From Steroidobacteraceae bacterium (GTDB lineage: Bacteria > Pseudomonadota > Gammaproteobacteria > Steroidobacterales > Steroidobacteraceae), in the NCBI GenBank assembly GCA_044375655.1, contig JBILMF010000001.1, positions 36,727 to 100,726 of the forward strand: 64,000 bases of DNA, read 5' to 3'. Below the pieces are notes generated by a model, which was not told the DNA's origin, ran no database searches, and saw only the letters and a list, made by a program, of their open reading frames with translations. This document shows positions 3 through 20,204 of this stretch, in pieces; position 1 is the first letter of the stretch; each line of letters opens with the position of its first letter. A program made the position numbers and the translations under genes.

Positions 3-1274
3 CGCAGCGGTAATCGTTCCGGCGCAATCACGCAGCTCGCCGAAGCGCGCCGCCTGCTGCTCTCCCTTGGCGCGCAGAACCCTGAAAATGTAGTCGACGC
101 TGCCGAACTCGTGCGCACCAACTGGCTCTATGGCGAGGTGCTGCGCAATGCGGGGCAGACAACCGAGGCGCTGCCTCTGCTGCGCGAGGCCGTGGTGATC
201 GCCGATGGCATCCTTGCGCGCAATCCCGCCCACCGACCGGTGCTGCGTGCCAAGGCCACGGCACTGAGCCAGCTCTCGCAAGTGGAAGCCGACCGGCTGC
301 GATACGCGGCTGCACTCGACATCGCCAGAGAGGCGACGCGTATCAACGAATCGATCTCGACGCTGGAGCCCAAAGAATCACGCAACAACCTGCGCGTCAC
401 AAGGGGATACGAGGCCACGGCACTGTCTGAACTCGGTCGCGTGGCCGAAGCGGCCAAGGCGTCCGCAGCAGCCATCGAATTCCGCGCGGGCGAGTCGATA
501 GGCGGGTTCGCGTTGTTCAACATGGCGCGCGGCTTGAGCGAGCGGGCTGTCATCGCCGCAATCGAGGGCAAGGACGACGACGCCAGATCTCTTCTTGCAC
601 GCGCCAGGGACGCCGCCGCGGAGCATGCCAAGGTCAACCCGAACAAAATCGATAACGGCTTGTTGAGGGCGGGTTATTCGCTGACGCTTGCGCAGATCCA
701 GCTGCTGCGGCGCGATACAGCGGGTGTCGAGGCGGCAATGGCGGAGCCGATCGCGGCAGTCGATGCGTTGCGGCAAGACGATCCAGCCAGCAACCAGCAG
801 TCTTTCGGCTTGCTGACCTCGGCGCTCGCAACGGCAGCTGAGGCTGCGGCGTTGCAAGGCGCCCATGCGCGGGCGGAGCAGCACGCCCGTGCGGAGCTGC
901 AGGAATGGCGTCGCGACAAGAATCCTTCGCTCTTCGACCAGCGCGCCGCCCACGGCGCGCGCGTCCGTCTCGCGCTGGCGCTTGCCCGACAGGGCAAACT
1001 CGCCGAAGCGAATGCCACGCTGCGGCCGGTACTCGACTTCTTCGCGCTGCCGGCGGTCCGCGCCAGCGACTCCGTGTTGCTCAACGCCGAGCATGCGCGG
1101 GCGCTGCTCGCCGCGGCGCTCGCCAATCCGTCACGGCGCAGCGAACTGCTCGCCGAGTCGAAGCGCCGCTTCGACTCGATGCCGCTGGCCGTGCGACGAC
1201 TCGGCAACCTCGCGCTGACCAGCGAAGAGATCGAGCGGGAGATTCGCCGCGGTCCGACAGCCACGAGGAACTGA
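3..1274 (+). CDS. All-alpha TPR-like repeat protein, 5'-truncated by the window edge
   Basis: The frame of track ORF 111..1274 stays open back to nt 3, so the GTG at 111 is probably internal. The sequence is Ala/Leu/Arg-rich helical repeat with no TM segment. Stop TGA 1272-1274 overlaps the ATG at 1274 of the next gene (TGATG). Confidence 0.6.
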   Translation, partial: RSGNRSGAITQLAEARRLLLSLGAQNPENVVDAAELVRTNWLYGEVLRNAGQTTEALPLLREAVVIADGILARNPAHRPVLRAKATALSQLSQVEADRLRYAAALDIAREATRINESISTLEPKESRNNLRVTRGYEATALSELGRVAEAAKASAAAIEFRAGESIGGFALFNMARGLSERAVIAAIEGKDDDARSLLARARDAAAEHAKVNPNKIDNGLLRAGYSLTLAQIQLLRRDTAGVEAAMAEPIAAVDALRQDDPASNQQSFGLLTSALATAAEAAALQGAHARAEQHARAELQEWRRDKNPSLFDQRAAHGARVRLALALARQGKLAEANATLRPVLDFFALPAVRASDSVLLNAEHARALLAAALANPSRRSELLAESKRRFDSMPLAVRRLGNLALTSEEIEREIRRGPTATRN

Positions 1275-3544
1275 TGCCCGACATCTTCCTCTCCTATTCG
1301 CGTGACGATCAGGCGCGGGCGAAGCTCTTCGCCGAGGCCTTTGCGCGCGAGGGTTTCGAGGTGTGGTGGGACGTCGGCCTGCGGGCCGGGGAGGCCTACG
1401 ACGCGGTCACCGAGCAGGCGCTGCGCGATGCCAAAGCCGTGGTCGTGCTCTGGTCACGGCGCTCGGTAGCGAGCCGCTGGGTCCGTGCCGAAGCCACCAT
1501 CGCGCTGCGCAGCAATACTTTGGTGCCGGTGACCATCGAGCCCTGCGAGCGACCGATCATGTTCGAGCTCACGCATACCGCGGAGCTCACTCACTGGACG
1601 GGTGATGCGGCAGACCCCGCCTTCCGCAGTTTCATCGACGGTCTGCGTGGTTTCGTCGCACACGGCACAGCCACGAAGGCAACGACGTCAGCGGCAGCCA
1701 GCGGCGGCGATAACGTGTCGAGTTCGAGGTTGGCCGCAGGTCTCAAAGGTCTGTCGCGGCGACAGGTACGCCTGCCAATTTTGGTCGCGCTGATCGGCGC
1801 GGTCGGTCTCGCCGCGCTCGGCTTTGCGATCTCGCGGACGCTGCAACCGACCACCGGGAGCGCCACCACTCGCGTCGCACAGGTCGACATCAACCTACCC
1901 GCCGGCTATGTGATCGGCCCAGGCCTGCTCGAGCCGGTGGCGATCTCCCACGACGGCACCCGCCTCGCCTTCGTCGCCCTCAAGGACGACAAGTCGGCGC
2001 TCTTCGTACGCGCGCTCGACGAACCCGACGCCAAGCGACTCGACGGCACCGACGGCGCGGACGCGCCGTTCTTCTCGCCCGACGATCGCTGGATCGGGTT
2101 CTTCGCCGGCGGCAAGTTGCGCAAAGTACCGGTCGGTGGGGGTGCCGCGCAGGTACTGGCCGACGCCAACTTCCCCCGCGGCGGCGACTGGAGCGATGAC
2201 GGCTACATCTATTTCGCACCGACCAACTCCGGCAGCATCTGGCGCATCCCGGAGGCCGGCGGCACACCGACCGAGGTCACCCAGCTCGACGCCGGCAAGG
2301 GCGAGGTCTCGCATCGTTGGCCGCACCGCATCCGCGGTACCGACACCCTGCTCTTCTCAGCCTGGACGGGACCGGGCGATGACGAGGCTCGGCTAGCGGT
2401 GCAGTCGGTCGGGACGGCGGGGCACCGCTGGCTCGTCGAGGGCAACCGACCGCGCTATGACGCCCGTGCCGAAGTTCTGGCGTACCGGTACGGCAGCCAG
2501 TTTCTCACCGTGCCGTGGAATCCGTCGCAAGCGGATTTCGGCAAAGCGGCTCCGACGCAGGCGGCAGTTCAGCCTACCGACGGCGGGCGCAACGAGGGCA
2601 CAGGCAACTTTGCGTTCGCCGAGAACGGCACGCTCGTCTATCTGCGCACCGCCGAATCCCTGAGTGCCGCCCAGTTGAGCTGGGTCGACCGCGCGGGCAA
2701 GTCCACGCCCCTGCCGCTGCCACAACGCAAGTACGAGAACGTGGCGGTGTCACCCGACGGGTCCCGGGCTGTCTTGCAGATTCGCGAGGGCACGACCCGG
2801 CTGTGGGTCTACGATTTCGTACGCAGCACACTAACCCCGTTGCCCACCGGACCGGGCTCCAGCCAGGCACCGGTATGGAGCGCCGACAGCAGGCATATCT
2901 TTTATCGCGGTACGCGGCAGGGAACACGCAACCTCTACCGTATCGCTGCTGACGGCTCCGGCGAGGAAGAGCGGCTGACCTCAAAGCCTGGTGTCGTCCA
3001 GACCCCCATCTCGGTATCTAAAGATGGTCAAATCCTTCTCTACAACGAAAATGGGCCGACAGAACGGTTTGAAGCAGGTGCGTGGATGCTGCCGCTCGCG
3101 GCCAATCAGCAAGCGCGTCGACTGTTCCCGGCAGCGGTCGATGCCGCCAATGCCCATCTGTCACCCGATGGTCGTTGGGTGGCCTACGAAGCGAGGGTGG
3201 CTTCGCGGGCGGAAATCTTTGTCGCCCCGTTTGGTGGTGATGGCGAGCGACGGCTCATCTCGACCGATGGCGGCGAGCAGCCACTCTGGTCACGCGACGG
3301 TCGCGAGCTGTTCTTCAATTCGCCGCGAGGCCTGATGGTCGTCGACATCGGAGTAGCCGGGAAATTGGCCCCGAGCTCCCCGCGACTCCTGCTGGCCGGC
3401 CCGTTCACCATCCGCCAGGTCAATAACAACACCATGTACGGCATCGCGCCCGACGGCAGCCGCTTCCTGCGTATCCAGTCGGTGGCGCAGAACCAGAACA
3501 TCCGGGACATCGAACTGGTCTTCAACTGGCTCGAGGCACGCTGA
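1274..3544 (+). CDS. Membrane-anchored TIR protein A: TIR domain, single TM, periplasmic TolB/PD40-like beta-propeller
   Basis: In-frame ATG at 1274 inside track ORF 905..3544. The N-terminus MPDIFLSYSRDDQ...AVVVLWS...SRWVRAE carries TIR_2-type motifs. One hydrophobic helix (LPILVALIGAVGLAALGFAI) follows an SRRQVR cluster. The C-terminal ~550 aa has repeated PD40-like motifs: FFSPDDRWIGF, VSPDGSRAV, WSADSRHIFY, LSPDGRWVAY, WSRDGRELFF. Confidence 0.85.
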   Translation: MPDIFLSYSRDDQARAKLFAEAFAREGFEVWWDVGLRAGEAYDAVTEQALRDAKAVVVLWSRRSVASRWVRAEATIALRSNTLVPVTIEPCERPIMFELTHTAELTHWTGDAADPAFRSFIDGLRGFVAHGTATKATTSAAASGGDNVSSSRLAAGLKGLSRRQVRLPILVALIGAVGLAALGFAISRTLQPTTGSATTRVAQVDINLPAGYVIGPGLLEPVAISHDGTRLAFVALKDDKSALFVRALDEPDAKRLDGTDGADAPFFSPDDRWIGFFAGGKLRKVPVGGGAAQVLADANFPRGGDWSDDGYIYFAPTNSGSIWRIPEAGGTPTEVTQLDAGKGEVSHRWPHRIRGTDTLLFSAWTGPGDDEARLAVQSVGTAGHRWLVEGNRPRYDARAEVLAYRYGSQFLTVPWNPSQADFGKAAPTQAAVQPTDGGRNEGTGNFAFAENGTLVYLRTAESLSAAQLSWVDRAGKSTPLPLPQRKYENVAVSPDGSRAVLQIREGTTRLWVYDFVRSTLTPLPTGPGSSQAPVWSADSRHIFYRGTRQGTRNLYRIAADGSGEEERLTSKPGVVQTPISVSKDGQILLYNENGPTERFEAGAWMLPLAANQQARRLFPAAVDAANAHLSPDGRWVAYEARVASRAEIFVAPFGGDGERRLISTDGGEQPLWSRDGRELFFNSPRGLMVVDIGVAGKLAPSSPRLLLAGPFTIRQVNNNTMYGIAPDGSRFLRIQSVAQNQNIRDIELVFNWLEAR

Positions 3545-3548
3545 TGTT

Positions 3549-3577
3549 TTGACATCTGATGCGCTGAAAAATAACAT
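3549..3577 (+). promoter_or_regulatory. Sigma70-type promoter of vapBC with overlapping inverted repeat; predicts a leaderless or near-leaderless transcript
   Basis: TTGACA at 3549-3554, 17-nt spacer, TAACAT at 3572-3577. The vapB ATG at 3586 lies only 8 nt after the -10 box and has no SD. Inverted repeat TGATGCG (3557-3563) / CGCATCA (3580-3586) brackets the -10 box. Confidence 0.45.
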
Positions 3578-3585
3578 CACGCATC

Positions 3586-3873
3586 ATGCGCACGACGATT
3601 GATATCGACGACCCCATCCTCAAGAAACTCAAGGCTATCCAGGCGCGCGACGGTCGCTCCCTCGGTCGACTGGTGTCAGACCTCCTCGCGCAGGCGCTCG
3701 CCAGCAATGTGAAAGAGGTCGCGCCGCAGTACTTCGTGTGGGCTACCAGCCCCGGGCCGCTGCGGGTAGACCTGGCCGACAAAGATGCCGTTTATGCGGC
3801 GCTCGATGAGACGCAAGACGATCCCCGCGACAGCGCGCGCGACGACGCCCCACTGAAGCCGCCGCGCGCATGA
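3586..3873 (+). CDS. vapB: Type II antitoxin, VapB family (MRTTIDIDD-type)
   Basis: The N-terminus MRTTIDIDDPILKKLKAIQARDG is typical of VapB/Rv0623-like antitoxins. It is small (95 aa), and its stop overlaps the start of a PIN gene (ATGA at 3870-3873). Confidence 0.7.
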   Translation: MRTTIDIDDPILKKLKAIQARDGRSLGRLVSDLLAQALASNVKEVAPQYFVWATSPGPLRVDLADKDAVYAALDETQDDPRDSARDDAPLKPPRA

Positions 3874-4304
3874 GCTTTGCAATCGACGTCAATCTCCTCG
3901 TCTACGCCTCCGCGAAAGGCGCCCCGCAGCATGCGGCAGCTGATGCCTTTCTGCGCGACTGTGTGCGCGGCCCGGAGGTGTTTTATGTCGCGTGGCTGAG
4001 TCTCATGAGCTATGTACGTCTCGTGACCCATCCAAAGATTCTGCGCAACCCGCTCACCTCCGCGCAGGCGCAGCGCAACATCGAAGCGCTGCTCCGCGTG
4101 CCTCACTGCCGGACGCTCACGGAGCAGGAGGGATTCTGGTCGGTGTATCTCGAGTGCACGCAGGGTCAGCCGGTCCGCGGCAATGACGTACCCGATACCC
4201 ACCTCGCGGCGATCCTCAAGCAGAACGGCGTGACGCGGCTCTACACCGCCGATCGCGACTTCCGCCGCTTCGATTTCCTGAAGGTCATCGATCCGATCGG
4301 CTAA
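3870..4304 (+). CDS. vapC: Type II toxin, PIN-domain ribonuclease VapC
   Basis: Acidic PIN residues sit in IDVNLLVYA, NDVPDTHLAAI and YTADRDFRRF. It is 144 aa and translationally coupled to vapB. Confidence 0.8.
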   Translation: MSFAIDVNLLVYASAKGAPQHAAADAFLRDCVRGPEVFYVAWLSLMSYVRLVTHPKILRNPLTSAQAQRNIEALLRVPHCRTLTEQEGFWSVYLECTQGQPVRGNDVPDTHLAAILKQNGVTRLYTADRDFRRFDFLKVIDPIG

Positions 4305-4345
4305 GCGTCCGGCGCCCATCGGCGGTCGCCTGCGAGTCGACAGTT

Positions 4346-6373
4346 TCAGTCGGGTTTGCGCACCAACTGCTCGTCGGCCAGCCCTACTGAGCGCAGGAAG
4401 GTGGCCCAGCGTGGGTGGGTATACAAGGGACGGAAGAGATAGTTGATCTTCATCCAACCGATACCCGGGTCGCGCACGTCGCGCATTGTCTCGACCTGGA
4501 TCATGGCGCCGTCGAAGTCCCCCGCAGCGGCGAGCAGCGCGCCGAGATAGGCAGGGTAGTCGCCCAGTTTCTCGAGATTGGCGCTTTTCGATTTTGTTTC
4601 CGAGATGATCTCGCGCAGTCGGCGCTGGTCGCCGCGACCTGCCGCAACGAGTCCCTGGACGAACAGTCTCGTGAGCAGGTCGGGCTCATCGAGGCCGAAC
4701 TGCTCCGCTTCGTCGAGCCGACCGAGCTCTACGAGCACGAGCCCCATGAAGCCTCGGTACCGCTGCCCCTGCGGCGAAAGCTCGAGCGCACGACGGAACC
4801 GGGTTTGCGCATCGATAAACTGATCGCTGAAGCGATAGATGAGTCCCAGGTCGAACTGCGTGGCCGGGTTGAGCGGATCGAGTCCCAGCGCTCGTCCAGC
4901 GAGATCCAGAGCCTCCGCCTTGCGACCGATCCCGACCTTGAGCACGGCAGTCGAGACGAGCACGTCCGTGTCGCTCGGCCGCTGCGCGAGGGCGCGATCG
5001 AAGGCCCGCTCGGCCTCGAGCCACTTCCAGTCCGCGGTTCGCAACATCCAGCCGTGAGCGACCAGCACCTCGGGGCTGTCGGGCTCCGCAGCCAGCGCCG
5101 GTGCGAGCGCCGCCTTCGCGGCCGCCCACGCATCCCTCGGCACCATGCCGCCCCAGCGGCCGAGCTGGACATAGGCCCGCGCCTGCTGGACGCGAGCGGG
5201 TACGAAGTCAGGATCGCGTTCGAGTGCACGCTCGAAGAGCGTGAGCGACTGCTTCAGGTTGTCGATCCCTGCGCGGCTCGCGAGCGCGCGGCCCTCGAGG
5301 TAAAGCCGGAACGCTTCGGGCTCTACCTGCCGGGCGGTAGCGGTCGCCGCCTGCGTGAGCTGCGGCGAGATATTCCGGGCGACAAGTCCCGCGATCTCGT
5401 CCTGTACCGCAAAGATATCCTTGAGATCTCGGGTAAAGCTGTCGCTCCATACCTGGAAGCCGTCGGTCGCCTGCACGAGCTGCACGCTGATACGCACCTT
5501 GTCGTCCGAGCGGCGCACGCTGCCCTCGACGATGTAGGCGACGCCCAGCTGACGGGCGATCTCAGGGATTGGCACCTCCTTGCCCTTGAAGGAAAAGGCC
5601 GAAGTCCTGGCCGTGACCTTGAGATTCGGGATCCTCGCCAGAACATTGATCAGCTCCTCGCTGATCCCTTCGGAGAAGAACTCGTTATCGGTCTCGTCCG
5701 AAAGATTGGCGAAGGCGAGCACGGCGACCGAGTTGTTGGTGATCGCCCGCTGCGCTGAAGCGGTCGACGTCGGCGAGGAAGATACCGTGGGCGATGATGA
5801 TCGCCAGCCCATCACACCCACCGCAGTGGCGAGTAGTGCGAGTACGCCGACGACTGCGGCGATGAGGGTACGACGCGAGAGGCCGGCGCCCGGTCCGGAA
5901 GTGGGGGGTGCCGATGCAGGTGCCGGAAACGCCTTGGGGGCCATGCTGGCCGCAGTCGTCGCGGTTCCGGTCGCGGACTTCTCGCGCGCGACGAAGCCGC
6001 GCAGGTCCTCGATGAAGCTGCGGAACGCCGGGTCTGTCGCATCGCCCGTCCAGTGCGTGAGCTCCGCGGTATGCGTGAGCTCAAACATGATCGGCCGCTC
6101 GCAGGGCTCGATGCTCACGGGCACGAGCGTGTTGCTGCGCAGCGCCAGCGTTGCCTCGGCCCGCACCCAGCGGCTCGTCACCGAGCGCTGCGACCAGAGC
6201 ACGACCACGGCCTTCGCGTCGCGCAGCGCCTGCTCGGTGACCGCGTCGTACGCCTCCCCGGCACGCAGACCGACATCCCACCAGACCTCGAACCCCTCGC
6301 GCGCAAAGGCCTCGGCGAAGAGCTTCGCCCGCGCCTGATCGTCACGCGAATAAGAGAGGAAGATGTCGGGCAT
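4346..6373 (-). CDS. Membrane-anchored TIR protein B: TIR domain, single TM, TolB-N/FlgO-like module, TPR repeats
   Basis: I chose the ATG at 6373 because it matches the start of paralog A; the TTG at 6421 would overlap the upstream gene. The TIR region differs from protein A at about 7 of the first ~131 residues. TM helix LIAAVVGVLALLATAVGVMGW follows LSRRT. Next comes SVAVLAFANLSD...YIVEGSVRR...VRISVQLV, then several TPR-like repeats (ALERDPDFVPARVQQARAYVQLGRW, ALGLDPLNPATQFDLGLIY, ALELSPQGQRYRGFMGLVLVELGR). Confidence 0.85.
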   Translation of the reverse strand: MPDIFLSYSRDDQARAKLFAEAFAREGFEVWWDVGLRAGEAYDAVTEQALRDAKAVVVLWSQRSVTSRWVRAEATLALRSNTLVPVSIEPCERPIMFELTHTAELTHWTGDATDPAFRSFIEDLRGFVAREKSATGTATTAASMAPKAFPAPASAPPTSGPGAGLSRRTLIAAVVGVLALLATAVGVMGWRSSSPTVSSSPTSTASAQRAITNNSVAVLAFANLSDETDNEFFSEGISEELINVLARIPNLKVTARTSAFSFKGKEVPIPEIARQLGVAYIVEGSVRRSDDKVRISVQLVQATDGFQVWSDSFTRDLKDIFAVQDEIAGLVARNISPQLTQAATATARQVEPEAFRLYLEGRALASRAGIDNLKQSLTLFERALERDPDFVPARVQQARAYVQLGRWGGMVPRDAWAAAKAALAPALAAEPDSPEVLVAHGWMLRTADWKWLEAERAFDRALAQRPSDTDVLVSTAVLKVGIGRKAEALDLAGRALGLDPLNPATQFDLGLIYRFSDQFIDAQTRFRRALELSPQGQRYRGFMGLVLVELGRLDEAEQFGLDEPDLLTRLFVQGLVAAGRGDQRRLREIISETKSKSANLEKLGDYPAYLGALLAAAGDFDGAMIQVETMRDVRDPGIGWMKINYLFRPLYTHPRWATFLRSVGLADEQLVRKPD

Positions 6374-6384
6374 ACGTCGTCTGC

Positions 6385-8712
6385 TCAATCGTCTTTGGGT
6401 TGCTCGAGCAATGTCGGCCAATTGGTCACGAGGCGGAAGCCGAAGGTCGAGGACGGGATAGTCGGGACATTGAGCAGCAGGCGCTCGCCGTCCGCCGTAA
6501 CGTCTTCAAAGATCGGTCGGTCCGTCTCGGGTTGTTCCGGCAGGCGGAAGAGGAGTGTCGGCGCGGGAGGTCGGAAATCGGCGTCCTCGGCGACCTGTAC
6601 CGACATCAGATCGCCACTCGGAGCGGCAAACAGCAGTTCGCGGCCGCCACGCGTCCAGCGCGGTCGGAACCCGCCAGCGCTCGACACCTGCCACTGCTGG
6701 GCGGCGCCTGAGGTCGGCCGGACGTAGACCTCGCGATTGCCGGATTCGTCCGACACGTAAGCAACCCAACGGCCGTCCGGAGAGACATCGACGTGGTCCT
6801 GAGAGCCTGCCGCCTTCAGGATGATCGTCGGGCTGGGTTTTGGCGCGGCGAGATCGATCCGCATGATGTCGTAGTCGCTGCCCGGAAACTGTTCGGCGTA
6901 GAACAGAGTACGGCCGTCCGCGAGGACACGCCCCGGATCCTTCCAGCCGCCAGACGAATGGATCACCTGCATGTCCGCACCGTCATCCAGCGACTTGATG
7001 CAGAGATCGCCCACATCCTCGATGCGACATCCGAACACAATCCGTTTCGAGTCGTTGAGCCACGCGGGCGAATTGTATCCGCGGGCATCACGGGACAACC
7101 GCAGGCGTCGCCCTTCGCGAACGTCAGTTAACCACAGGCTTGATTCTCCGTAGAACTCGCCGACGACGGTAGCGATCTTGCTGCCGTCCGGCGAGAGCCG
7201 TGGCCAAAAATACCGGTCCACCGGACCCACGCTCCCCTGAAGGTTGCCGCGGCGGTCCACCCACAGCAGTCGGGATTCGCGCTCCAGGATCGAACTCGGC
7301 AGGAACAGCAAGGCACCCGAATCGGAGGCCGAGAAACCCATGAACCCTCGCGCCGGGTACCCGGCGATCTGGCCGACCGGAACGGGCATGGGCTCCCCGA
7401 CGATTTCGAGTCGATCCATGTCGAGACGTACCGCGAGCAGGTCCGCCTTGCGCCCGAAGAGCAGGTAACCGGGGTCGACGTACTGGGGATTGGACGCGCC
7501 GCTGAGCAGCAGACGCGGCGCATCACCCTGCAGATTGGCCAACATGAGACGCGCCGTTTCGGGCGTGTCCATCGATCCCGAAACCATCGCCAGAAAGACA
7601 AAATGCTGTCCATCGGGCAGGAACGCAGGCCAGCGGTAGGAATCCGGCGCCTTGGCACGCGCCACTTCGCGCGTTGGCCCCCCGGAGGCGGACACCGCGT
7701 GCAAGCCGGAGGCGATATCGCGCGAAAACAGGATCACATCGTCGCGGTTCCACGTGCCCCCGCGCCCCTGCGGCGCATCGGCCAGCACCTGCGCTGCGCT
7801 GCCGCGCAAATCCAGCTTCTTGAGCTTGCCGTCCGCGAAGAAACCGACCTGCAGGCCGTCGGGTGACCAGAACGGGTAGTAGCCACCCGTTGTTCCCGGC
7901 AATGCGCGCGGCGTCGCGGAGGATAAATCGCGCACGAACAACTGGCGCTCGCCGCTTCTGGTCCGGGCTGAGAACACGGCCTTGCGTCCATCCGGCGACA
8001 GGGCCGCGCCGAGTTCGAACGAACGAAGCAGCGTTGCATCCGCCGGCGGATCGAGGCTCGCGATGATGGGTTCCCGGAGTGGCGGATTACCCGGTCGCCA
8101 ACCGGTGAGCAGCGCTGTGAGCGCTCCGACCGCCAGCAGCGCGCAGCCCGTGGCGACAGCCCAAGCCACGCGCTCACGGCGCGAGCTGAGGGTGCGCAGT
8201 TTGGGTTTCAGCGCGGCGGGCGGTTCGGTCTTTGTCGTCGCGACCGCGCCGTCCTCGGCGGGTAGGGCGGCGATGGCCCGGGCCAACTCCTCGACCCGGT
8301 CCTCGATCCGGCCGCTGAAGCCGTCCGTCCAGTGATGCCTCGCGAGATAGAGTTCGAGCGAGCGGCCGGGCTGCACATCCTCGACCCGAAAGGTCAGGAT
8401 CGGCTTGCCGAGCGTGAAGGCGCGGTTTACCTCGTTCTTGACGAACGGCGCCTTGTTCGCGGCCGAGGAAAGAACGAGCAGAAAGACCGAGGTCGAGTCG
8501 ATGGCGTCGAGGATTGCCTCGTCCCACACTTTGCCGGGCACCACATCGCGCGGACCGATCCAGCAGGGCAGGCCGCGCGCCTCCAGCAGCGCACAGACTT
8601 CCATCGCGAGCGCGTGGTCGTTGTTCGAGTGGGAGATGAAAATGCGGGCCGGTTGTCGGACGTCGCTCAAGGAGCCCCCATCACTTTGCTTGCCGGAGTA
8701 TCTTGCGGACAT
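6385..8712 (-). CDS. Membrane-anchored TIR protein C: divergent TIR domain, single TM, TolB/PD40-like beta-propeller
   Basis: TIR_2 motifs: RIFISHSNNDH, VWDEAILDAI, VFLLVLSS, PFVKNEV. TM helix VAWAVATGCALLAVGALTALLTGW follows SSRRER. PD40-like motifs: LSPDGRKAVF, FWSPDGLQVGFF, LSPDGSKIA, VSPDGRWVAY, WTRGGRELLF. The stop lies 11 nt before the start of gene B. Confidence 0.85.
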   Translation of the reverse strand: MSARYSGKQSDGGSLSDVRQPARIFISHSNNDHALAMEVCALLEARGLPCWIGPRDVVPGKVWDEAILDAIDSTSVFLLVLSSAANKAPFVKNEVNRAFTLGKPILTFRVEDVQPGRSLELYLARHHWTDGFSGRIEDRVEELARAIAALPAEDGAVATTKTEPPAALKPKLRTLSSRRERVAWAVATGCALLAVGALTALLTGWRPGNPPLREPIIASLDPPADATLLRSFELGAALSPDGRKAVFSARTRSGERQLFVRDLSSATPRALPGTTGGYYPFWSPDGLQVGFFADGKLKKLDLRGSAAQVLADAPQGRGGTWNRDDVILFSRDIASGLHAVSASGGPTREVARAKAPDSYRWPAFLPDGQHFVFLAMVSGSMDTPETARLMLANLQGDAPRLLLSGASNPQYVDPGYLLFGRKADLLAVRLDMDRLEIVGEPMPVPVGQIAGYPARGFMGFSASDSGALLFLPSSILERESRLLWVDRRGNLQGSVGPVDRYFWPRLSPDGSKIATVVGEFYGESSLWLTDVREGRRLRLSRDARGYNSPAWLNDSKRIVFGCRIEDVGDLCIKSLDDGADMQVIHSSGGWKDPGRVLADGRTLFYAEQFPGSDYDIMRIDLAAPKPSPTIILKAAGSQDHVDVSPDGRWVAYVSDESGNREVYVRPTSGAAQQWQVSSAGGFRPRWTRGGRELLFAAPSGDLMSVQVAEDADFRPPAPTLLFRLPEQPETDRPIFEDVTADGERLLLNVPTIPSSTFGFRLVTNWPTLLEQPKDD

Positions 8713-8798
8713 CTTTTGGCGGATGCACGGACTATCTCCAGCCCACTGGAACGATGCCGGTGGGCAACCCTATCTGGAATTTTCGTCCGTTGACCGCC

Positions 8799-10826
8799 TC
8801 AAGCCGGCACGGTGATCTGCTTCGCCTCGAACACCGCCTGCCAGCTTTCGATCTCGCTCACCACAATGTCGTCGGCGGCGTGCGCGAGCTCCGCGACCGA
8901 GCCGTAATCGAGCGCGGAGTCCGGCGCGCGCAGGATGAGCGCAATACGCGCATCCACCGCCTCGAGCTTGCCCGCCGTCACCCGCGAGATCGCCGCAAAG
9001 CGCTCGAAATCGCCGAAGAAACGGATGCCGGACAGCGCGCCGCCGAAGGTCGGCAGCGCCACGCCGAGAAAAGTGAATACTTTGGTCAGGCTCTTGAAGA
9101 GCTCCTGATCGAGGAGCCCGACCCAGCTGGTCGCTGCCAGAACGAGGTACAGCGCCGCCGCGGCCACCGCGAGCTGGAAGGAGCGCTCGGACAGGTGGTC
9201 GAGATTGTGGTGCACGGCGGTCAGGCGTCGCGCCTTCTGTGCGTGGTAGCCGCACTGCGAGGAAACATGCGGTGCGATCAACTCGACCAGTACGGCGCGC
9301 AGGTATTCCGGGGTGATGCGTACGTGGGGCAGACCGATTTCGCGTAGCGCATGGCGTGCATAGTGTTCGGGCCAGGCGGTGTCGGATCCACGCGGCCAGC
9401 GGCCGGTGGCGCGTGCTGCGCCGAGCGACAGCAGCAACGGTGAGTGGCGCAGGTATTCGGCGACGCGGCGTGTCTCGAACCAGCGGCCATGCCAGCGGCG
9501 TCCCTGGCCAACGAAGGTGATGGCAAGGATGGCGCCGAGCAGCACGAGTTCGAAGGCCGCGAACGGCCACTTCCAGGAACTGTCCACGACCGGCAGGTAG
9601 GCGACGCCGCTGATCACCGCCAACGCCGACAACACGAAGTTGACGACCATGCTGCCACGATAGGTGTCGGATAAATGCGCAGCGATGCCGTCTGACCAGG
9701 CAAAGCGACCGAGTACACCCTCGACCACGCGCTCGGCAAAGGGTCGGTCGGCCGACGGCAGGTTCGCGAGCGCCGAGGCCACGCCTGCGCCTGACCCGGT
9801 GGCGATCTCGTCGGGCGTCTCATAGGTCTGGGTCAGCGAGCGGCGCGGACGCGGACGCTTCTGCCCGTCGAAGCTGCGCTCTACCCAGCGGTACGCATGC
9901 CACAGCGGATTGCTGCGCGCGCGCCAGTTGCCGGCCGAGATCGCCGCGACCCCGAGATCGCGGGCGGGCGGCACAGCCGCCACGCCGACAACGCCCGGCA
10001 GCAGCGACGACAGCAAGATCTGTCGCAGCAGCGTTTCGCGGTCGGCGAGCGCGGAGTCCTCGTGGAGCAGTGCAAGCGACTCCGGTGCACCGAGGATGCG
10101 CCACGCATCGGGTACGGCGGGGTCGATCCAGAGTACGGGCGTACCCATGTCGAGGGCGGCGGCAACGGTATGGCCCGTGCCGCCGACGAGGCTGGTGCGG
10201 GCACCGTCCCAGACAGCGATCACCAGATCGGAATGCTCGATCATCACCCGCCCGGCGAGCGCCACGCGCACCGAGCTGTCGGCGCGAAACACATCCGAGC
10301 GGCCCACGTCTTCCGGGCGATCGTGCATGGCGAGGAGGTGTTCGGTGATCGCCGCATCGGCGTCGGCGAGCTCGAAGACCTGCGCCTGAGTGGTGATGGA
10401 TCGCAGCGCCGCAGCACGGCGCTGCACGTCAGCGTCGGCCGGTTCACGGCCGGCGAGCAGCGCGCGGGCGTCCTCAGCCGTGCGCGGGCCGGCGTTGATG
10501 GCGCAGTTGAGCGACTGTCCGAACGGCAGCAGAGCGATGAGATCCCAGCCGCGACCGAGGGCCGCATGCGCCGCCATCTGATCGGTGCCATCCGCCATGA
10601 GCGACTGCATGCGGATCGGCGCAAAGGGCTCGCCGAAGGGTGGGGTCAAGGAGCCGACGATGGCGACGATCTCGTCGAGCACGCGACCCATGGCGGACTC
10701 GATGGCCGCCGCACGCGGTGCGTAGGACGGATGGTCGGCTCGATGTCCCGTAACGCCGAGGGACAGACGCACGCGCGGCGCGCGCGGCGGAGTGACAGGT
10801 CGGGCGGCGTCGGTCGGTTCGCGCAC
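8799..10826 (-). CDS. SLOG (DprA/LOG-like Rossmann) domain fused to two SLATT/DUF4231-like 2TM modules
   Basis: N-terminal Rossmann-like pattern: LSLGVTGHR, SLMADGTDQMAAHAAL (compare DprA GxxxGID..AH..AL), DLVIAVWDG...LVGGTGHTVAAAL (LOG/DprA GGxG-type loop). Residues ~390-460 give TM (VVNFVLSALAVISGVAYLPVV), TM (WPFAAFELVLLGAILAITFVG), then RRWHGRWFETRRVAEYLR. Residues ~525-625 give GYHAQKARRL, then TM (FQLAVAAAALYLVLAATSWVGLL), TM (VFTFLGVALPTFGGALSGI) and an amphipathic helix. The GTG start is 9 nt after the eptA stop. Confidence 0.6.
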   Translation of the reverse strand: MREPTDAARPVTPPRAPRVRLSLGVTGHRADHPSYAPRAAAIESAMGRVLDEIVAIVGSLTPPFGEPFAPIRMQSLMADGTDQMAAHAALGRGWDLIALLPFGQSLNCAINAGPRTAEDARALLAGREPADADVQRRAAALRSITTQAQVFELADADAAITEHLLAMHDRPEDVGRSDVFRADSSVRVALAGRVMIEHSDLVIAVWDGARTSLVGGTGHTVAAALDMGTPVLWIDPAVPDAWRILGAPESLALLHEDSALADRETLLRQILLSSLLPGVVGVAAVPPARDLGVAAISAGNWRARSNPLWHAYRWVERSFDGQKRPRPRRSLTQTYETPDEIATGSGAGVASALANLPSADRPFAERVVEGVLGRFAWSDGIAAHLSDTYRGSMVVNFVLSALAVISGVAYLPVVDSSWKWPFAAFELVLLGAILAITFVGQGRRWHGRWFETRRVAEYLRHSPLLLSLGAARATGRWPRGSDTAWPEHYARHALREIGLPHVRITPEYLRAVLVELIAPHVSSQCGYHAQKARRLTAVHHNLDHLSERSFQLAVAAAALYLVLAATSWVGLLDQELFKSLTKVFTFLGVALPTFGGALSGIRFFGDFERFAAISRVTAGKLEAVDARIALILRAPDSALDYGSVAELAHAADDIVVSEIESWQAVFEAKQITVPA

Positions 10827-10835
10827 CGGCGAAGT

Positions 10836-12518
10836 TTAGCCGAGATCCCGTGGCCGGCATTCCGTAAACATGTCGAGCGCGCGATTGCGTGCGGCTGTAT
10901 CGACCTGCAGCAGGCCGAGTACGGTGTGGAAGATGTTGTCGTGCGACAGTTCGCGCTTGCGGCCGCGCTCGACGCAGGCCATGTCGAGGCCCATGCGGCG
11001 CGCGTACCCCTCCGAGGCCCAGAAGACCATCGGCACCCGGGTCTGCTGGTCCGGGGCGATCGCGTACGGCAGCGCGTGCAGGAAGACGCCGCTCTCGCCC
11101 AGCGACTCGCCGTGATCGGAGACGTAGAGCAGCGCCGTGTCCGCACGGTCGGCGATTGCCGCCAGCGAGCGGATCGCACCGGCAAGCAGGTGATCGGTAT
11201 AAAGGATGGTGTCGTCGTAAGCGTTGACGATTTCCTCGACCTGGCACTTGGAGAAATCCGTCTCGCGGCAGACCGGGGTGAACTGCTCGAACTGCCGTGG
11301 ATAGCGCAGGTGATAGCCGGGTCCGTGGCTGCCGAGCATGTGCAGCACGGCCAGGCGTCGACCCGCAGGCTGCGCCAGAGATTTTTCGAAGAGGTCGAAC
11401 ATCGCGCCGTCCATGCAGGGGCCATCGCCCACGCAAAGCTGCGGATAGTCCTCGCGCGCGGCCCGGATCTCGGGAAGGCCGCGACAGACGCCCTTGCAGT
11501 GGGTGTTGTTGCCGAACCATTGGACCGTGAAGCCCGCCTTGCCCACGATATCGACGAGGTTGTCGCGGGCCTTGGCCTTCTCCGCCGAGAAACCGGCGCG
11601 GCCGAGATCCGAGAACATGCAGGGGACGGAGATGGCGGTGGAGGTGCCGCAGGACGACACGGCAGTGAAGTTGATCAGACCCGGCGTCGCGGCAAGTTGC
11701 GGCGTGGTCTGCCGCCGGTACCCGTCCAGCCCAAAGTCTGCTGCGCGTGCGGTTTCGCCAACCACCAGTACGACGATGAGGGGACGCACGGCGTCCGCGG
11801 CCTGCCACAGCTTGCCGGGTCGTGCATCGCTGCCGATCGGTTCATAAGGCAAGTCGGGTTTCGTCACCTCGGCGACATAGCTGCCGGCACCCGCTAGGTA
11901 GTTGACCGGCACGAGCAGGTGGCGCAGTTCACGGTTGTTGCGCAGCGTCGCAGCATGGTCCTGGTAGTAGAGCGCGGCGATCGCCCCGATGCCGAGTGCC
12001 GTGAGCCCCAGTGCGAGGCCACGGTGCGCCAACTCAACTCGCCACGTCGCGAGGACGAGACGCGTGCGCATCACCAGCACGGCGGGCAGCACGCCGAGCA
12101 GGCCGACGTAGAGGATCAGACTGAGATTGATGAGCTCCCCCGCCTCGAGGCCGTCGGTCTCGAAGACATTGCGGATCATCACCCGGTCGATGCGCACGCC
12201 GTAGGCCTGCACGAAGTAGGACGCGAGGGCGGCGAGCAGCAACACGACCGCCAGCAGCGGGCGGGCGAGCGGCCGGATCAGCGTGAACACCAGCAGAAAC
12301 AGGTTGATCAGCAGAAAGGCGAGCAGCGCGAACGAGATCAGGTAGAAGACATCGTCCGCCGAAGCGGGCGGCCGGATCTCGAACACCCGCGACCAGAAAG
12401 GCAGGTTGAGTGCGAGCAGGCACCAGAGCGACGCGCAGGCCGTGAGCGCCGTGGTGCTGATCTGCCATCGGGGGAGTTGCAGTTTCATGGAGATATCGTG
12501 CCCGGAGTGCGGCCGCAT
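10836..12518 (-). CDS. eptA: Phosphoethanolamine-lipid A transferase (EptA/MCR family)
   Basis: Five N-terminal TM helices plus a sulfatase-like domain with VVGETARAADFGLDGY, SSCGTSTAISVPCMFS (nucleophilic Thr context as in EptA/MCR-1), HMLGSHGPGYHLRYP and YVSDHGESLGE. An alternative internal start ATG at 12488 (MKLQLPRW) is possible; GC3 of the intervening 10 codons favours 12518. Confidence 0.9.
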   Translation of the reverse strand: MRPHSGHDISMKLQLPRWQISTTALTACASLWCLLALNLPFWSRVFEIRPPASADDVFYLISFALLAFLLINLFLLVFTLIRPLARPLLAVVLLLAALASYFVQAYGVRIDRVMIRNVFETDGLEAGELINLSLILYVGLLGVLPAVLVMRTRLVLATWRVELAHRGLALGLTALGIGAIAALYYQDHAATLRNNRELRHLLVPVNYLAGAGSYVAEVTKPDLPYEPIGSDARPGKLWQAADAVRPLIVVLVVGETARAADFGLDGYRRQTTPQLAATPGLINFTAVSSCGTSTAISVPCMFSDLGRAGFSAEKAKARDNLVDIVGKAGFTVQWFGNNTHCKGVCRGLPEIRAAREDYPQLCVGDGPCMDGAMFDLFEKSLAQPAGRRLAVLHMLGSHGPGYHLRYPRQFEQFTPVCRETDFSKCQVEEIVNAYDDTILYTDHLLAGAIRSLAAIADRADTALLYVSDHGESLGESGVFLHALPYAIAPDQQTRVPMVFWASEGYARRMGLDMACVERGRKRELSHDNIFHTVLGLLQVDTAARNRALDMFTECRPRDLG

Positions 12519-12526
12519 GCGGCCGT

Positions 12527-14239
12527 TCAGAAGCTGCGCTTGGTCTCGACGGTCACCTGCATGCTCTTCAGCGACTTGTCACCGCCTACCGGAAAAGCGA
12601 GGTCGATATGCAGCACGTTGCCGAGCGCCGAGCGGCTGTTGCCGAGGCGCAAGCCGACACCGACGTCACCGAGCACCTCCTGCGTGCCGCTCGCAAACGG
12701 GTCACGACCCCAGGTGCCACCGACGTCGAGGAAGGCGGCGCCGCCGACATGCACCAGCCGGAAGGGATACCAGTCGGTGAAGGCCCGCTGTTCGAGGGTC
12801 AGCAGCCAGCGACCCTGCCCGCCCTGATAGCGCAGCGGATAACCGCGCAACCCCGTATCGCCGCCCAGCATCAGCTCGCGATCGGCATCCAGCTTCTCAC
12901 CGCTGTCGACCGCCAGACTGGCAAAGAAAAGCCGCCTCTCGGACTGCCGGTGATAGTAGCGCGCCGAGGCGCTGAGCAGCGTATCGGCGAACGCACCGTG
13001 CTCATGGCGGCCGTCCAGCGAGGCGGCGAGCAGCAGGCTGCGCTTGCCGCTCAATTCGTAGCCCTTGCTGAGTTGTGAGGTGAAGATCACCGCGTTACGG
13101 TCGGCATCGAGACCCTTGGTCGAGTAGCCGATCCGTATGCCGGCGCGCCAGCCGTACTGGAAGTCCTCGGTGCGCTCGATCTGGTCGAGGTTGCGCAGCG
13201 CGCGAAAATCATCCTCCACGAACTCGACCGCCGCCCACGGATAGACCAGCTTGCGATCCGCAGGCGCCGCCGCGCGAAAGCGGCTGCCCGCCACCGGGTC
13301 GAACACCCGCTCGTCGTCCGTGAGACCGACCGACCAGCGTGTGACGAAGCGCCCCTGCAGGCCGCGCGACCAGCCGACCCAGGCGCTGCGGAAGCGGCGA
13401 TCGACGAGATACTCGGCAACCGGCTCGCCGCGGTCGTAGCGCGTGTCGATGCGATTCGTCTTGAACGAGGAAAAACCGCCCGCACGGCGGGTATCGAGGG
13501 CGTAGAAAGGCTGCTCGAGCAGCAGCCGCTTGGCGCCACCGTCGCTGAAGTCGGAGTGCTCGAGCTCGAGCGCCCACCAGGTGCTGCCGAGTTGGCGGTC
13601 GACATAGCGGAAGGAGGTGATGTCGCGATCGACTTCGTTCAGCTGCTTGAAGTTGAGCTGCGAGCCCTGCCCGAAAAGATTGAGCTCCTCGAGTTCGAAG
13701 CCTGAGGTGCTCTTGCCGCCCGAGCGGCCGAAAGAGATGCCGGGATTGAGCGTCCAGACATCACGCGTCACCACCTCGATGTCCACCACCCCGTCGACGT
13801 AGCGCACCGGACGCACTGCGGCATCGTAGAGATAGCGGGTATCGCGCAGCAGCCGCTCGCTCTCCTCGAGCAGTCGCCCCTTGTAGGGATCGCCCGCGCG
13901 GAACAGCAGCCGGTCGACGATGGTCGTTTCACGACTGTTGACGTGCAGGCGATTGGCCGTACGGAACAGCCAGGTGTTCTCATCTGGACGGCTGGTGTCG
14001 AAGACGTCGAGCGCACGGATGGTCACCGTGCCGATGCGTGCGCCCGCCGCCTCGAGTGTGGCGTCATCCGGTACCTCGGCCGGGCGTTTGCGTTCCACCG
14101 GGTCGGTACGGGCCGCCACCAGCGGCCTGCCAGCGGGGGGCTCGGCCGCAGACAGCCACGCGCAGAACAAAGCAACGCCTCCAAAGACTGTTACCGCGAC
14201 AAGTCGATCAAGCGGCTCTAGACATCGGCGATGGTTCAT
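12527..14239 (-). CDS. Omp85/BamA-family outer-membrane protein (POTRA plus beta-barrel)
   Basis: ATG at 14239 (MNHRRCL...) gives a signal peptide ending in WLSAAEP. A POTRA-like region (IGTVTIRALDVFD...) precedes long alternating beta-strand sequence that ends in the aromatic terminus VETKRSF. Confidence 0.8.
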   Translation of the reverse strand: MNHRRCLEPLDRLVAVTVFGGVALFCAWLSAAEPPAGRPLVAARTDPVERKRPAEVPDDATLEAAGARIGTVTIRALDVFDTSRPDENTWLFRTANRLHVNSRETTIVDRLLFRAGDPYKGRLLEESERLLRDTRYLYDAAVRPVRYVDGVVDIEVVTRDVWTLNPGISFGRSGGKSTSGFELEELNLFGQGSQLNFKQLNEVDRDITSFRYVDRQLGSTWWALELEHSDFSDGGAKRLLLEQPFYALDTRRAGGFSSFKTNRIDTRYDRGEPVAEYLVDRRFRSAWVGWSRGLQGRFVTRWSVGLTDDERVFDPVAGSRFRAAAPADRKLVYPWAAVEFVEDDFRALRNLDQIERTEDFQYGWRAGIRIGYSTKGLDADRNAVIFTSQLSKGYELSGKRSLLLAASLDGRHEHGAFADTLLSASARYYHRQSERRLFFASLAVDSGEKLDADRELMLGGDTGLRGYPLRYQGGQGRWLLTLEQRAFTDWYPFRLVHVGGAAFLDVGGTWGRDPFASGTQEVLGDVGVGLRLGNSRSALGNVLHIDLAFPVGGDKSLKSMQVTVETKRSF

Positions 14240-14610
14240 TCGGTGAACAGCAACGCGCCCGTCACCAGAGGCAGCGCCAGGTGGACACGCAGGAAACCGG
14301 GACTGAGGCGGCGGAGCGACAAGGTTGTGAGGTGGCTTGTGGCAAGGCTCCCGGGACGATCGGAGACGACCGAGGAGGCCCTGCGCGGCTTCAAGGAGAC
14401 CTTGAAATCCGTCGCAAGTTCCCGAAGTTATTGACGTTTCGGACAACCCCCGGGCGCAAGTGTGACGCAGGGCAGGTACGGTGGCCAGCCTTTACCCGCC
14501 GCGCGGCCTGCCGCATCATCCATGGCCCGCTCTACCTCGCGCCAGCGCACCGCACCCGATCCTGCCGACTGCGCACCCCGGGAACAGCGGCCATCCTCTG
14601 AGGGTCGACC

Positions 14611-15135
14611 ATGAAAAAACTGCTCGCGCTCGTTCTGTTCGCCATCGCAGCGCCGCTCGGCCTCGCCGCCGCCGAAGTCGGCAAGCCAGCGCCGGATTTC
14701 CGGCTGCAGGACCAGACCGGCGCGTGGCGCTCGCTGGCCGATTACCGGGGCAAGTGGGTAGTGCTCTATTTCTACCCCAAGGACAACACCCCGGGCTGCA
14801 CCACTCAGGCCTGCGAGTTCCGCGACGAGATCTTCGCCTTCCGCAGGGCCAACGCGGTGATCCTCGGCGTGAGCGTCGACAAGGTCGACTCCAAGGAAGC
14901 CTTCGCCAAGGAGCACAGCCTGCCGTTCCCGGTGCTGGCGGACGCCGATACCGCCACCACCCGCGCCTACGGCTCGCTCACCAGCTACCCGCAGTTCAAG
15001 CTCTTCAATATCGCCCGCCGCGACACTTTCATCATCGACCCCGAGGGTCGGGTGGCGAGGCGCTTCGACAACGTCAATCCCAACGGGCACTCGAAGATGG
15101 TGCTCGCCGAGCTGACCGCCCTGCAGGCCCGCTGA
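14611..15135 (+). CDS. bcp: Secreted peroxiredoxin, Bcp/PrxQ type
   Basis: Signal peptide MKKLLALVLFAIAAPLGLAAA; peroxidatic Cys motif YFYPKDNTPGCTTQACEF. Confidence 0.9.
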   Translation: MKKLLALVLFAIAAPLGLAAAEVGKPAPDFRLQDQTGAWRSLADYRGKWVVLYFYPKDNTPGCTTQACEFRDEIFAFRRANAVILGVSVDKVDSKEAFAKEHSLPFPVLADADTATTRAYGSLTSYPQFKLFNIARRDTFIIDPEGRVARRFDNVNPNGHSKMVLAELTALQAR

Positions 15136-15192
15136 ACCCGGGCGTCACGGCCGCGCGACGAACTGCGACGGACTACCCGTTTTGGCTAACCG

Positions 15193-15966: not shown

Positions 15967-16040
15967 CTGACCCGCCGCGCCGCCTATAATCGGCGCCGTG
16001 CCGACCCGCTCGGCTTGTTGGCTGTCGCCACCGGTAATCC

Positions 16041-20196: not shown

Positions 20197-20204
20197 CGTC
20201 CGGC

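Follow-up and report, generated by a model that had tools for sequence, protein, structure and literature searches.

The stretch of DNA considered here, called the window, is 64,000 nucleotides (nt) long and comes from a Steroidobacteraceae bacterium (contig JBILMF010000001.1 of assembly GCA_044375655.1). Its GC content is ca 67%, and the nearest relatives of its DNA are Acidibacter/Steroidobacteraceae metagenome-assembled genomes. Close to its left end lie three genes whose products carry a TIR domain, called TIR-A (1274-3544, + strand, 756 aa), TIR-B (4346-6373, − strand, 675 aa) and TIR-C (6385-8712, − strand, 775 aa), and a fourth gene, called P4 (8799-10826, − strand, 675 aa), for a membrane protein. 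The four open reading frames (ORFs) are located exactly where the first-pass annotation of this DNA had placed them. As will be discussed below, the linkage between P4-type genes and TIR genes is real, and the four genes may well belong to a Thoeris-like conflict module.

All three TIR ORFs start with a TIR_2 domain, as had been proposed. The Pfam E-values are 5e-20 for TIR-A, 3e-20 for TIR-B and 4e-19 for TIR-C, with scores of 70–73 bits to be compared with a gathering score of 28. The domain covers residues 1-125 in both TIR-A (nt 1274-1648) and TIR-B (nt 5999-6373), and residues 20-147 in TIR-C (nt 8272-8655), where it is divergent. The motifs quoted earlier for these proteins, FLSYSRDD, FISHSNND, VVLWS, LLVLSS, SRWVRAE and PFVKNEV, were all found, and the Glu of SRWVRAE does align to the catalytic-Glu position of the plant and bacterial TIR NADases RUN1, RPP1, RPV1 and AbTir. 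TIR-C retains a Glu in FVKNE. In other genomes, all of 49 TIRs encoded next to P4 homologues show the pattern S..S.WV..E with its catalytic Glu unchanged.

Each TIR domain is followed by a single strongly hydrophobic helix, again in agreement with the annotation, at residues 169-187 of TIR-A (nt 1778-1834), 170-188 of TIR-B (nt 5810-5866) and 185-203 of TIR-C (nt 8104-8160). Since Arg residues precede this helix, the N-terminus with the TIR domain is placed in the cytoplasm. The part that follows the helix is then a periplasmic sensor, which is a PD40/Tricorn-like beta-propeller in TIR-A (nt ~1871-3541; Pfam PD40 4e-17), an alpha/beta module with TPR repeats in TIR-B (nt 4349-5761; TPR_19 2e-13), and a PD40 propeller in TIR-C (nt 6388-8070; PD40 3e-20). 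A 429-nt inverted repeat (1274-1702 / 5945-6373) is made up of the first parts of the TIR-A and TIR-B genes, which encode the TIR domains. The two copies are 86% identical as DNA, whereas the two TIR_2 domains are 94.5% identical as protein, a sign that the TIR domain was duplicated and has been kept under purifying selection while attached to unrelated ectodomains (PD40 vs TPR).

The sensors are of known receptor types. In TIR-A, the transmembrane helix and the sensor of ~570 aa, making up ~75% of the protein, are 50–59% identical to the corresponding parts of hundreds of Pkinase-transmembrane-PD40 receptor kinases from Acidobacteriota and Gemmatimonadota. TIR-A can therefore be described as a receptor-kinase chassis in which a TIR domain replaces the kinase; among the 120 best clusters matching the sensor, a TIR_2 domain stands in place of the kinase in only 4. 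The ectodomain of TIR-B gives weak matches to CadC/HilA-type regulators (residues 166-524). Its architecture, TIR, transmembrane helix, alpha/beta module and TPRs, is the commonest one beside P4 homologues. The same 'AVLPFxNxSGD...' alpha/beta module with TPRs was also observed in TIR-TPR partners that have no transmembrane helix (loci L023, L026, L035, L040, L041, L066, L067, L082, L086 and L087 in our numbering), and because of these the TIR-B-type sensor module appears, from the sequences, to be functional in the cytoplasm as well as in the periplasm.

P4 is predicted, from an AlphaFold model together with profile matches, to be an inner-membrane protein with four transmembrane helices in two pairs. 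The full-length model has a predicted local distance difference test (pLDDT) value of 90 and begins with an alpha/beta domain that contains a helical insert and would be a cytoplasmic SLOG-like Rossmannoid domain (residues ~18-275, nt 10002-10775), followed by two helical hairpin modules, called module 1 (residues ~361-472, nt 9411-9746) and module 2 (residues ~506-667, nt 8826-9311). When modelled alone, the N-terminal domain has a pLDDT of 93. A Foldseek search of the PDB with this domain returned DprA (3uqz, 5mll), the DprA-like defence protein ShosA (8zva) and the LOG-like TM1055 (1rcu) as the only matches at a probability of 0.98–1.00, all other matches being at 0.2 or below. The corresponding search with the full-length model gave long-helix noise (ABC transporters, pore-forming toxins), and the results are interpretable only for the N-terminal domain alone.

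Three motifs of this domain, GVTGHR (24-29), DGxDQxxAxxAL (79-90) and GGTGH (215-219), vary little or not at all among 42 close members of the family, and their core positions are kept in 21 divergent members. The invariant polar residues are H28, R72, D82, E197, D200 and H219. In shape, the motifs resemble the glycine-rich loops that follow strand 1 and precede the last helix in DprA (GSR / G-x-D-x-x-A-H) and LOG (GGxGT-type). The earlier label 'DprA/LOG-like' is thus upheld by fold and motifs, but not by sequence families, where no significant match was obtained. Pfam scans of the N-terminal domains of the family at E-values up to 10 returned only sub-threshold YpsA, YAcAr and Nuc_deoxyrib_tr matches, the YAcAr ones being weak and limited to 2 of the 21 divergent members. 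Searches of PDB chains with a full-length family profile and with a divergent N-domain profile gave no sequence link to SLOG structures, as the matches were weak and spurious (antibody light chains, sugar-binding proteins). A SLOG-superfamily fold of the N-terminal domain is supported by the structural model, and sub-threshold YpsA-SLOG matches recur in divergent members.

Turning to the membrane part, module 1 scanned alone matches DUF4231 (residues ~374-472) with 27.7 bits, above the gathering score of 24.7. It also matches SLATT_1 with an E-value of 1e-6, as do 37 of the 42 close members, and distant P4 relatives keep it as well, with DUF4231 or SLATT_1 matches. Module 2 gives only a weak SLATT_4 match (E-value 3e-3), seen in 3 of the 42 members, and in one distant relative a SLATT_1 match below the gathering score falls at the equivalent position. 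An alignment of module 1 against module 2 with hhalign, aimed at an internal SLATT duplication, was not significant (Neff 1.9). Of the two 2TM modules described earlier, the first is therefore clearly SLATT/DUF4231 and the second weakly SLATT_4-like. A fair description of P4, resting on the model, is a SLOG-like sensor followed by a SLATT module and a second two-transmembrane (2TM) module. SLOG-SLATT fusions were reportedly predicted by Burroughs et al. in 2015 in Nucleic Acids Research (NAR; cited via PMC9503650 and PMC7159879), and the name SLATT, for 'SMODS and SLOG-associating 2TM', mirrors fusions of this kind. The first-pass annotation would have been given up for a fold outside the SLOG class or a membrane region outside SLATT; with SLOG-superfamily neighbours for the N-terminal domain and SLATT for module 1, the idea was not refuted on this count.

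In the window, P4 and TIR-C lie on the same strand, with the claimed 86 nt between the end of P4 and the start of TIR-C, and only 11 nt separate TIR-C from TIR-B. No terminator-like site was found among P4, TIR-C and TIR-B. TIR-A, on the other hand, closes an operon of its own, at the head of which stands a truncated NTPase gene with a stop codon that overlaps the start codon of TIR-A. The truncated gene (3-1274, + strand) encodes the C-terminal 423 aa, helical and TPR-like, of an nSTAND1-type STAND NTPase, and along 417 aa it shares 52% identity with the C-terminal part of the nSTAND1 protein at another locus, L092. Beyond the left end of the window, the source contig continues for only 346 nt. 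Because this nSTAND1 C-terminus overlaps TIR-A, and the full operon is present in L092, a larger system is evidently cut by the left boundary, that is, by the window and the contig end.

We now turn our attention to the P4 family, which consists of proteins of ~670 aa that are all annotated as 'hypothetical'. More than 1,282 clusters at 90% identity match P4, and a profile of the N-terminal domain matches 4,124 clusters at 50% identity with E<1e-3, 1,445 of them with E<1e-10. In a scan of one genome per species, relatives were found in 395 of ~185,000 species. From these 395, we sampled 80 species-level P4 loci, to which the neighbourhood counts given here refer. TIR genes were searched within 6 kb of P4 using a hidden Markov model built from TIR domains, and a gene less than 400 nt away is called adjacent.

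A TIR gene is present within 6 kb of P4 in 50 of the 80 loci and directly adjacent in 31, in 25 of these on the same strand. If the count is restricted to loci where P4 is flanked by 3 kb or more on either side, the proportion is 30/46. The adjacent genes often overlap or are less than 30 nt apart on the same strand, in varied contexts. When the neighbouring ORFs of the 80 loci are clustered, TIR is the only widely shared partner (48 loci) and the only nucleotide-related family that is enriched; neighbourhoods other than TIR and P4 are not conserved. A distant member of the family (N-domain match with an E-value of ~1e-23) adjoins a TIR-STAND gene, and in metagenomic contexts of P4 homologues with 59–87% identity a TIR_2 gene lies next door in 5 of 6 cases, with differing C-terminal parts. 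The first-pass annotation had named missing co-conservation in other genomes as a reason to abandon its proposal. With co-location in ~60% of the 80 loci, and beside the distant member too, the TIR–P4 gene linkage is real.

The partner TIRs are also similar to each other. Pfam TIR_2 is passed by 48 of 49 P4-partner proteins, and the sensors on these 49 proteins are TPRs in ~33 cases, WD40 in 3, and STAND in others. The main partner clade is 60–77% identical to TIR-A/B in the TIR domain, regardless of whether the sensor is a transmembrane helix with TPRs, a soluble TPR part, WD40 or STAND. There is also a Sphingomonad group, 38–50% identical to TIR-A/B, and a separate group typified by locus L006. 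Judged by the TIR domain, the types that accompany P4 in other genomes are thus the TIR-B and TIR-A types. Two to three TIR genes per P4 were found in L026, L035, L058, L067 and L086. In ca 1/3 of the P4-linked TIR proteins the transmembrane helix is absent (soluble TPR or STAND forms), and for this reason the trans-envelope feature is common but not defining. The earlier 'trans-envelope' claim has to be narrowed accordingly: membrane-anchored receptors are common beside P4, but the feature is not general, and PD40-type receptors, such as TIR-A and TIR-C, are not seen beside P4 elsewhere.

The genomic context of related TIR genes was examined at two further loci. L008 (1-16000) and L092 (1-13736) share a flank with genes for an S41 peptidase, an S8 peptidase, YhhN and a class-A beta-lactamase. 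After this flank, L008 has a P4 gene and a TIR-AAA_16-HTH_77 (TIR-STAND) gene, whereas L092 has, in order, genes for SIR2_2-TIR_2, nSTAND1 (1078 aa), a TIR-A-like protein and a TIR-C orthologue (80% identity), the last two being TIR-PD40 genes. Cargo that varies at a fixed flank is what one would expect of a defence-type hot spot, and the site does look like a chromosomal hot spot with exchangeable TIR cargo. In the window, two small overlapping ORFs sit between the divergent TIR-A and TIR-B genes and have identical gene calls on the source contig. They encode a DUF6364-like protein (3586-3873, + strand, 95 aa; Pfam DUF6364 3.5e-3) and a PIN-domain protein (3870-4304, + strand, 144 aa; Pfam PIN 1.3e-5) and, as far as can be judged from the sequence, look like a VapBC-type toxin-antitoxin pair. 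The nSTAND1 gene, the SIR2-TIR gene, this VapBC-like pair and the cargo swapping may point to a conflict or immune island rather than to an envelope-stress circuit. A sigma-70-like promoter match is located at 3549-3577, before the pair.

Our preferred reading, which we hold with somewhat better than even confidence, is that the locus is a Thoeris-like conflict module in which sensor-fused enzymatic TIRs would make an ADP-ribose (ADPR)-derived signal that is read by a SLOG-SLATT inner-membrane effector. The components would be three inner-membrane receptors, each with a periplasmic propeller or TPR domain, one transmembrane helix and a cytoplasmic TIR domain, together with the single effector P4; one of the receptors, TIR-A, would be co-transcribed with the nSTAND1 NTPase. 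In the proposed mechanism, a stimulus at the sensor domain would cause the receptors to cluster, and the TIR domains would thereby form an active NAD+-cleaving or cyclising oligomer. The ADP-ribose-derived product would diffuse in the cytoplasm and bind to the SLOG domain of P4, after which the SLATT modules would open or form oligomers that make the inner membrane permeable, leading to growth arrest or abortive infection. The domain identities, the logic of the membrane topology, the catalytic Glu and the conserved TIR–P4 linkage come from the data, whereas we infer that the TIRs are active enzymes, what their signal is, that P4 binds it and forms a pore, and what stimulates the receptors. 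The producer/receptor/effector circuit suggested from the start is a reasonable Thoeris-like model, as the fold and co-conservation tests did not refute it. The domains, the fold and the TIR–P4 linkage speak for it, its enzymology, ligand binding and gating are putative, and its trans-envelope part does not hold in general.

A number of validated or listed systems can be compared with this scheme. Thoeris type VII consists of a TIR (ThsB) and a SLATT protein (ThsH), is validated and uses canonical cyclic ADP-ribose (cADPR) as the signal (Yirmiya et al., bioRxiv 10.64898/2025.12.03.692087). Like the present locus, it has a TIR gene beside a SLATT 2TM membrane protein, with a predicted membrane breach triggered by an ADPR derivative. 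It differs in that ThsH is described by its SLATT annotation alone, whereas P4 adds a SLOG-like domain of ~280 aa and a second 2TM module, the two being compared by description. Furthermore, the TIRs here are fused to a transmembrane helix with a periplasmic sensor or to STAND, while the systems in the preprint are two-gene TIR-plus-effector operons. TIR-SLATT neighbourhoods have been noted before by Aravind and colleagues, with SLATT predicted to be a nucleotide-gated pore (PMC9503650, PMC7159879).

In Thoeris type I, the ThsB TIR works with ThsA, a SIR2-SLOG protein in which SLOG is the signal receptor, and type III combines several TIRs with a SLOG effector (bioRxiv 10.64898/2025.12.03.692087). 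The likeness to these types is the SLOG-class domain as the putative receptor of the TIR product and the presence of several TIR genes per effector; the arrays of 2–3 TIRs per P4 resemble the multiple ThsB genes per Thoeris effector. The output is different, being a four-transmembrane (4TM) SLATT-type membrane module in P4 and a SIR2 NADase in ThsA.

The closest counterpart in words is the 'SLOG and 4TM' architecture beside a TIR gene, to which the P4 family may correspond; P4 was compared with this unvalidated Thoeris candidate by description only. The hosts given for '4TM SLOG' are Streptomyces sp. GKU 895 and Ca. Nitrospira nitrosa, with effectors IMG 2862473379 and 2691454910 (bioRxiv 10.64898/2025.12.03.692087), and the TIR domains listed there are very unlike those of TIR-A/B/C in sequence. 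We also tried to reach the '4TM SLOG' effector via the listed Nitrospira TIR, and gave this route up: it led only to relatives with 55–64% identity, and on the one contig looked at, L089, the TIR lies beside a UDPGP gene.

The earlier statement that the combination is uncharacterised therefore holds in part. TIR with SLATT has been validated as type VII and 'SLOG and 4TM' is already listed, but we found no description of membrane-anchored TIR receptors with PD40/TPR ectodomains linked to a P4-like effector in the literature consulted, which is incomplete and does not include Burroughs et al. 2015. What is distinctive here is the presence of outward-facing receptor-type sensors on TIRs together with a large family of effectors that escapes the current models.

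It is important to point out that several observations weigh against the preferred reading. Regarding the fold of P4, the Foldseek E-values of the N-terminal domain are modest (2e-3 to 3e-2, with TM-scores of 0.33–0.52), none of the curated SLOG sequence models of Pfam and NCBIfam is above threshold on it, and the YpsA-SLOG matches in 4 of the 21 divergent members are sub-threshold (best E-value 0.013; P0215 at 0.0036). PADLOC gives no match to P4, and no defence-system sequence model recognises it. The Thoeris models fare similarly on TIR-A/B/C, with the PADLOC ThsB model below threshold (E-values of 1e-3 to 7e-3) and NCBIfam ThcB4 at 29–30 bits for a cut-off of 220. Regarding the linkage, 16 of the 46 P4 loci with full flanks are TIR-free within 6 kb, the TIR-C type has no counterpart among the TIRs beside P4 in the 80 other loci, and no P4 was found near the TIR-PD40 homologues of L092-L094 in the available DNA (three contigs). 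P4 is 50–60% identical between Alpha- and Gammaproteobacteria, which is unusually conserved for a defence effector, and the neighbours in the wider window are envelope housekeeping genes (EptA, Omp85-like, AsmA-like, DegP-like protease). Finally, 'SLOG and 4TM' beside a TIR is listed as a putative type, and the only operons of this kind that were tested did not protect E. coli from phage (bioRxiv 10.64898/2025.12.03.692087, Tables S1-S2).

A bolder reading, to which we give only limited credence, is that these proteins are bacterial Toll-like receptors in layout and logic, such that a periplasmic sensor, exchangeable with those of receptor Ser/Thr kinases, would drive an enzymatic TIR whose product gates a SLOG-SLATT channel. 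The kinases with a PD40/Tricorn-like propeller carry the same kind of sensor as TIR-A, with a kinase there and a TIR here. The likeness to the animal Toll/TLR/IL-1R receptors, an extracytoplasmic repeat sensor, a single transmembrane helix and a cytoplasmic TIR, is an analogy only. The ectodomains have no homology, and the TIRs here keep the catalytic Glu of enzymatic TIRs, whereas the TIRs of animal receptors act as scaffolds. Were this reading true, TIR would serve generally, much like GGDEF/cyclase domains, as the output domain of trans-membrane second-messenger signalling. It would report what happens outside the cytoplasm, for instance a phage that adsorbs or injects its DNA, damage to the envelope, or cascades of secreted proteases (cf. 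the S1 proteases below), in contrast to the cytoplasmic phage sensing known for Thoeris.

The strongest alternative, which we consider rather unlikely, is a non-immune trans-envelope second-messenger pathway. Here, the TIR receptors would sense periplasmic or environmental cues, such as envelope damage, peptides or cell-wall fragments, as for the homologous receptor kinases, and the nucleotide messenger that they make would act on P4, a gated channel for adaptation and not for killing. The kinase-type helix and sensor of TIR-A, with the TIR swapped in as the output, fit this well, as do the weakly CadC/HilA-like sensor of TIR-B, the high conservation of P4, the envelope-biogenesis genes around the cluster, and the S1 proteases and the K+-channel-like gene that accompany the module elsewhere. 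On the other hand, the neighbourhoods other than TIR and P4 are not conserved, and the STAND NTPases, SIR2-TIR, toxin-antitoxin genes and cargo swapping are hallmarks of conflict systems. In addition, one third of the partner TIRs lack a transmembrane helix, and the patchy spread of the family, seen in the species scan, fits mobile accessory modules.

Another option considered is that the TIRs are self-contained NAD+-depleting effectors, as in Avs/TIR-STAND and TIR-pAgo, and that P4 is an independent co-resident of the island that receives no signal from them. Several P4 neighbours are indeed TIR-STAND proteins, in which the TIR is usually an NADase effector and which Yirmiya et al. left out of the signalling systems (bioRxiv 10.64898/2025.12.03.692087); TIR-A is coupled to nSTAND1, TIR-PD40 genes exist without P4, and ca 1/3 of the P4 loci have no TIR. 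However, the adjacency in 31/80 loci, often tight and on the same strand, and the retention of one TIR clade across differing sensor architectures speak against independence. Moreover, in Thoeris type I the TIR product is received by a domain of the same fold class as that of P4, and no other partner family accounts for this nucleotide-binding-type domain. We regard this scenario as improbable.

Even less probable is a direct contact between TIR and P4 at the membrane, for instance in a TIR-SLOG Rossmannoid hetero-assembly, or a SLOG domain that acts as an enzyme processing or degrading the TIR product. TIR receptors and P4 alike have inner-membrane anchors, the strong TIR conservation (60–77% identity) would also fit an interaction surface, and there are enzymes in the SLOG superfamily, LOG among them, with P4 having many invariant polar residues. 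Against this stand the invariance of the catalytic Glu of the TIRs, the pairing of soluble and STAND-fused TIRs with P4, and Ala222 in P4. By our reading of the alignments, Ala222 occupies the Glu position of the LOG 'PGGxGTxxE' motif, and this position is not conserved in the relatives.

A chance juxtaposition of unrelated genes can practically be dismissed: the EptA/Omp85-like genes are equally tight upstream of P4 without being conserved partners, and the position of TIR-C beside P4 is unique to this lineage, but the linkage in 50/80 species-level loci and at the distant member makes the neighbourhood statistics strongly unfavourable to chance, and none of the three TIR matches in the 64-kb window is more than 10 kb away from P4.

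The ThsB proteins known from Thoeris-type systems are cytoplasmic. The Thoeris-like module described here places one conserved TIR clade on sensors of known receptor type (kinase-shared propeller, TPR, WD40, STAND) and ties it genomically to one effector. It is a system with separable parts, in which the external, that is, extracytoplasmic, driving of bacterial TIR signalling, and its ligand, can be addressed. It also defines a large unannotated family, SLOG-like domain plus SLATT plus 2TM, with a sensor domain that is missed by the current Pfam, NCBIfam and PADLOC models. If this family is the same as 'SLOG and 4TM', the failure in E. coli could perhaps be due to cognate sensors that may need a native envelope cue.

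As for the remaining genes around P4 in the window, an EptA-type phosphoethanolamine-lipid A transferase (EptA NCBIfam, 553 bits) and a weak Omp85-like ORF (10836-14446, − strand) immediately precede P4 on its own strand, with gaps of 8–9 nt. We have considered them as members of the system and rejected this, as the tight spacing is not conserved: in L008 the EptA gene is 5 kb from P4 and on its other side, and in other loci it is absent. Further along, there is ca 1.5 kb between the Omp85-like and protease genes without a convincing gene call; the ORF at 14481-15989 (+ strand) was discarded as a probable artefact, since it has no family match and its translation is rich in Arg and Pro, as wrong frames of high-GC DNA typically are. 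Then follow genes for a secreted Trypsin_2 (DegP-like) protease (16041-17408, + strand), a 661-aa protein without a family match (17417-19402, + strand) and an AsmA-family protein (20091-21491, + strand).

At other P4 loci, in Sphingomonadales and relatives, two further genes recur: a secreted S1 trypsin-like protease in 23/80 and a small K+-channel-like protein in 11/80. Neither of them is present in the window, and they were therefore rejected as parts of its system; the Trypsin_2 protease at 16041-17408 is from another family and stands among the envelope genes. Thoeris type X, also validated, consists of a TIR and an ion channel (bioRxiv 10.64898/2025.12.03.692087), and for this reason the K+-channel loci may carry two effectors. 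The K+-channel-like protein has ca 145 aa, two transmembrane helices and the selectivity motif TTLGIGD, and its gene is immediately beside P4, mostly in Sphingomonadales (L024 5559-6023; L027 8002-8493; ~5520-5957 or equivalent in L047, L048, L050, L051 and L055). The S1 proteases have a chymotrypsin fold (TAAHC ... GDSGGP), in some cases with an N-terminal extension of ~300 aa, and often occur in two copies, between or beside P4 and the gene for a TIR protein with a transmembrane helix and TPRs. They were seen in L018, L024, L027, L028, L030, L032, L043, L047-L051, L055, L056, L061, L063-L065, L068, L072, L074 and L084, with examples at L027 8494-10506 and L024 10508-11638. By analogy, a periplasmic protease beside a TIR receptor recalls the activation of Toll by a protease cascade.

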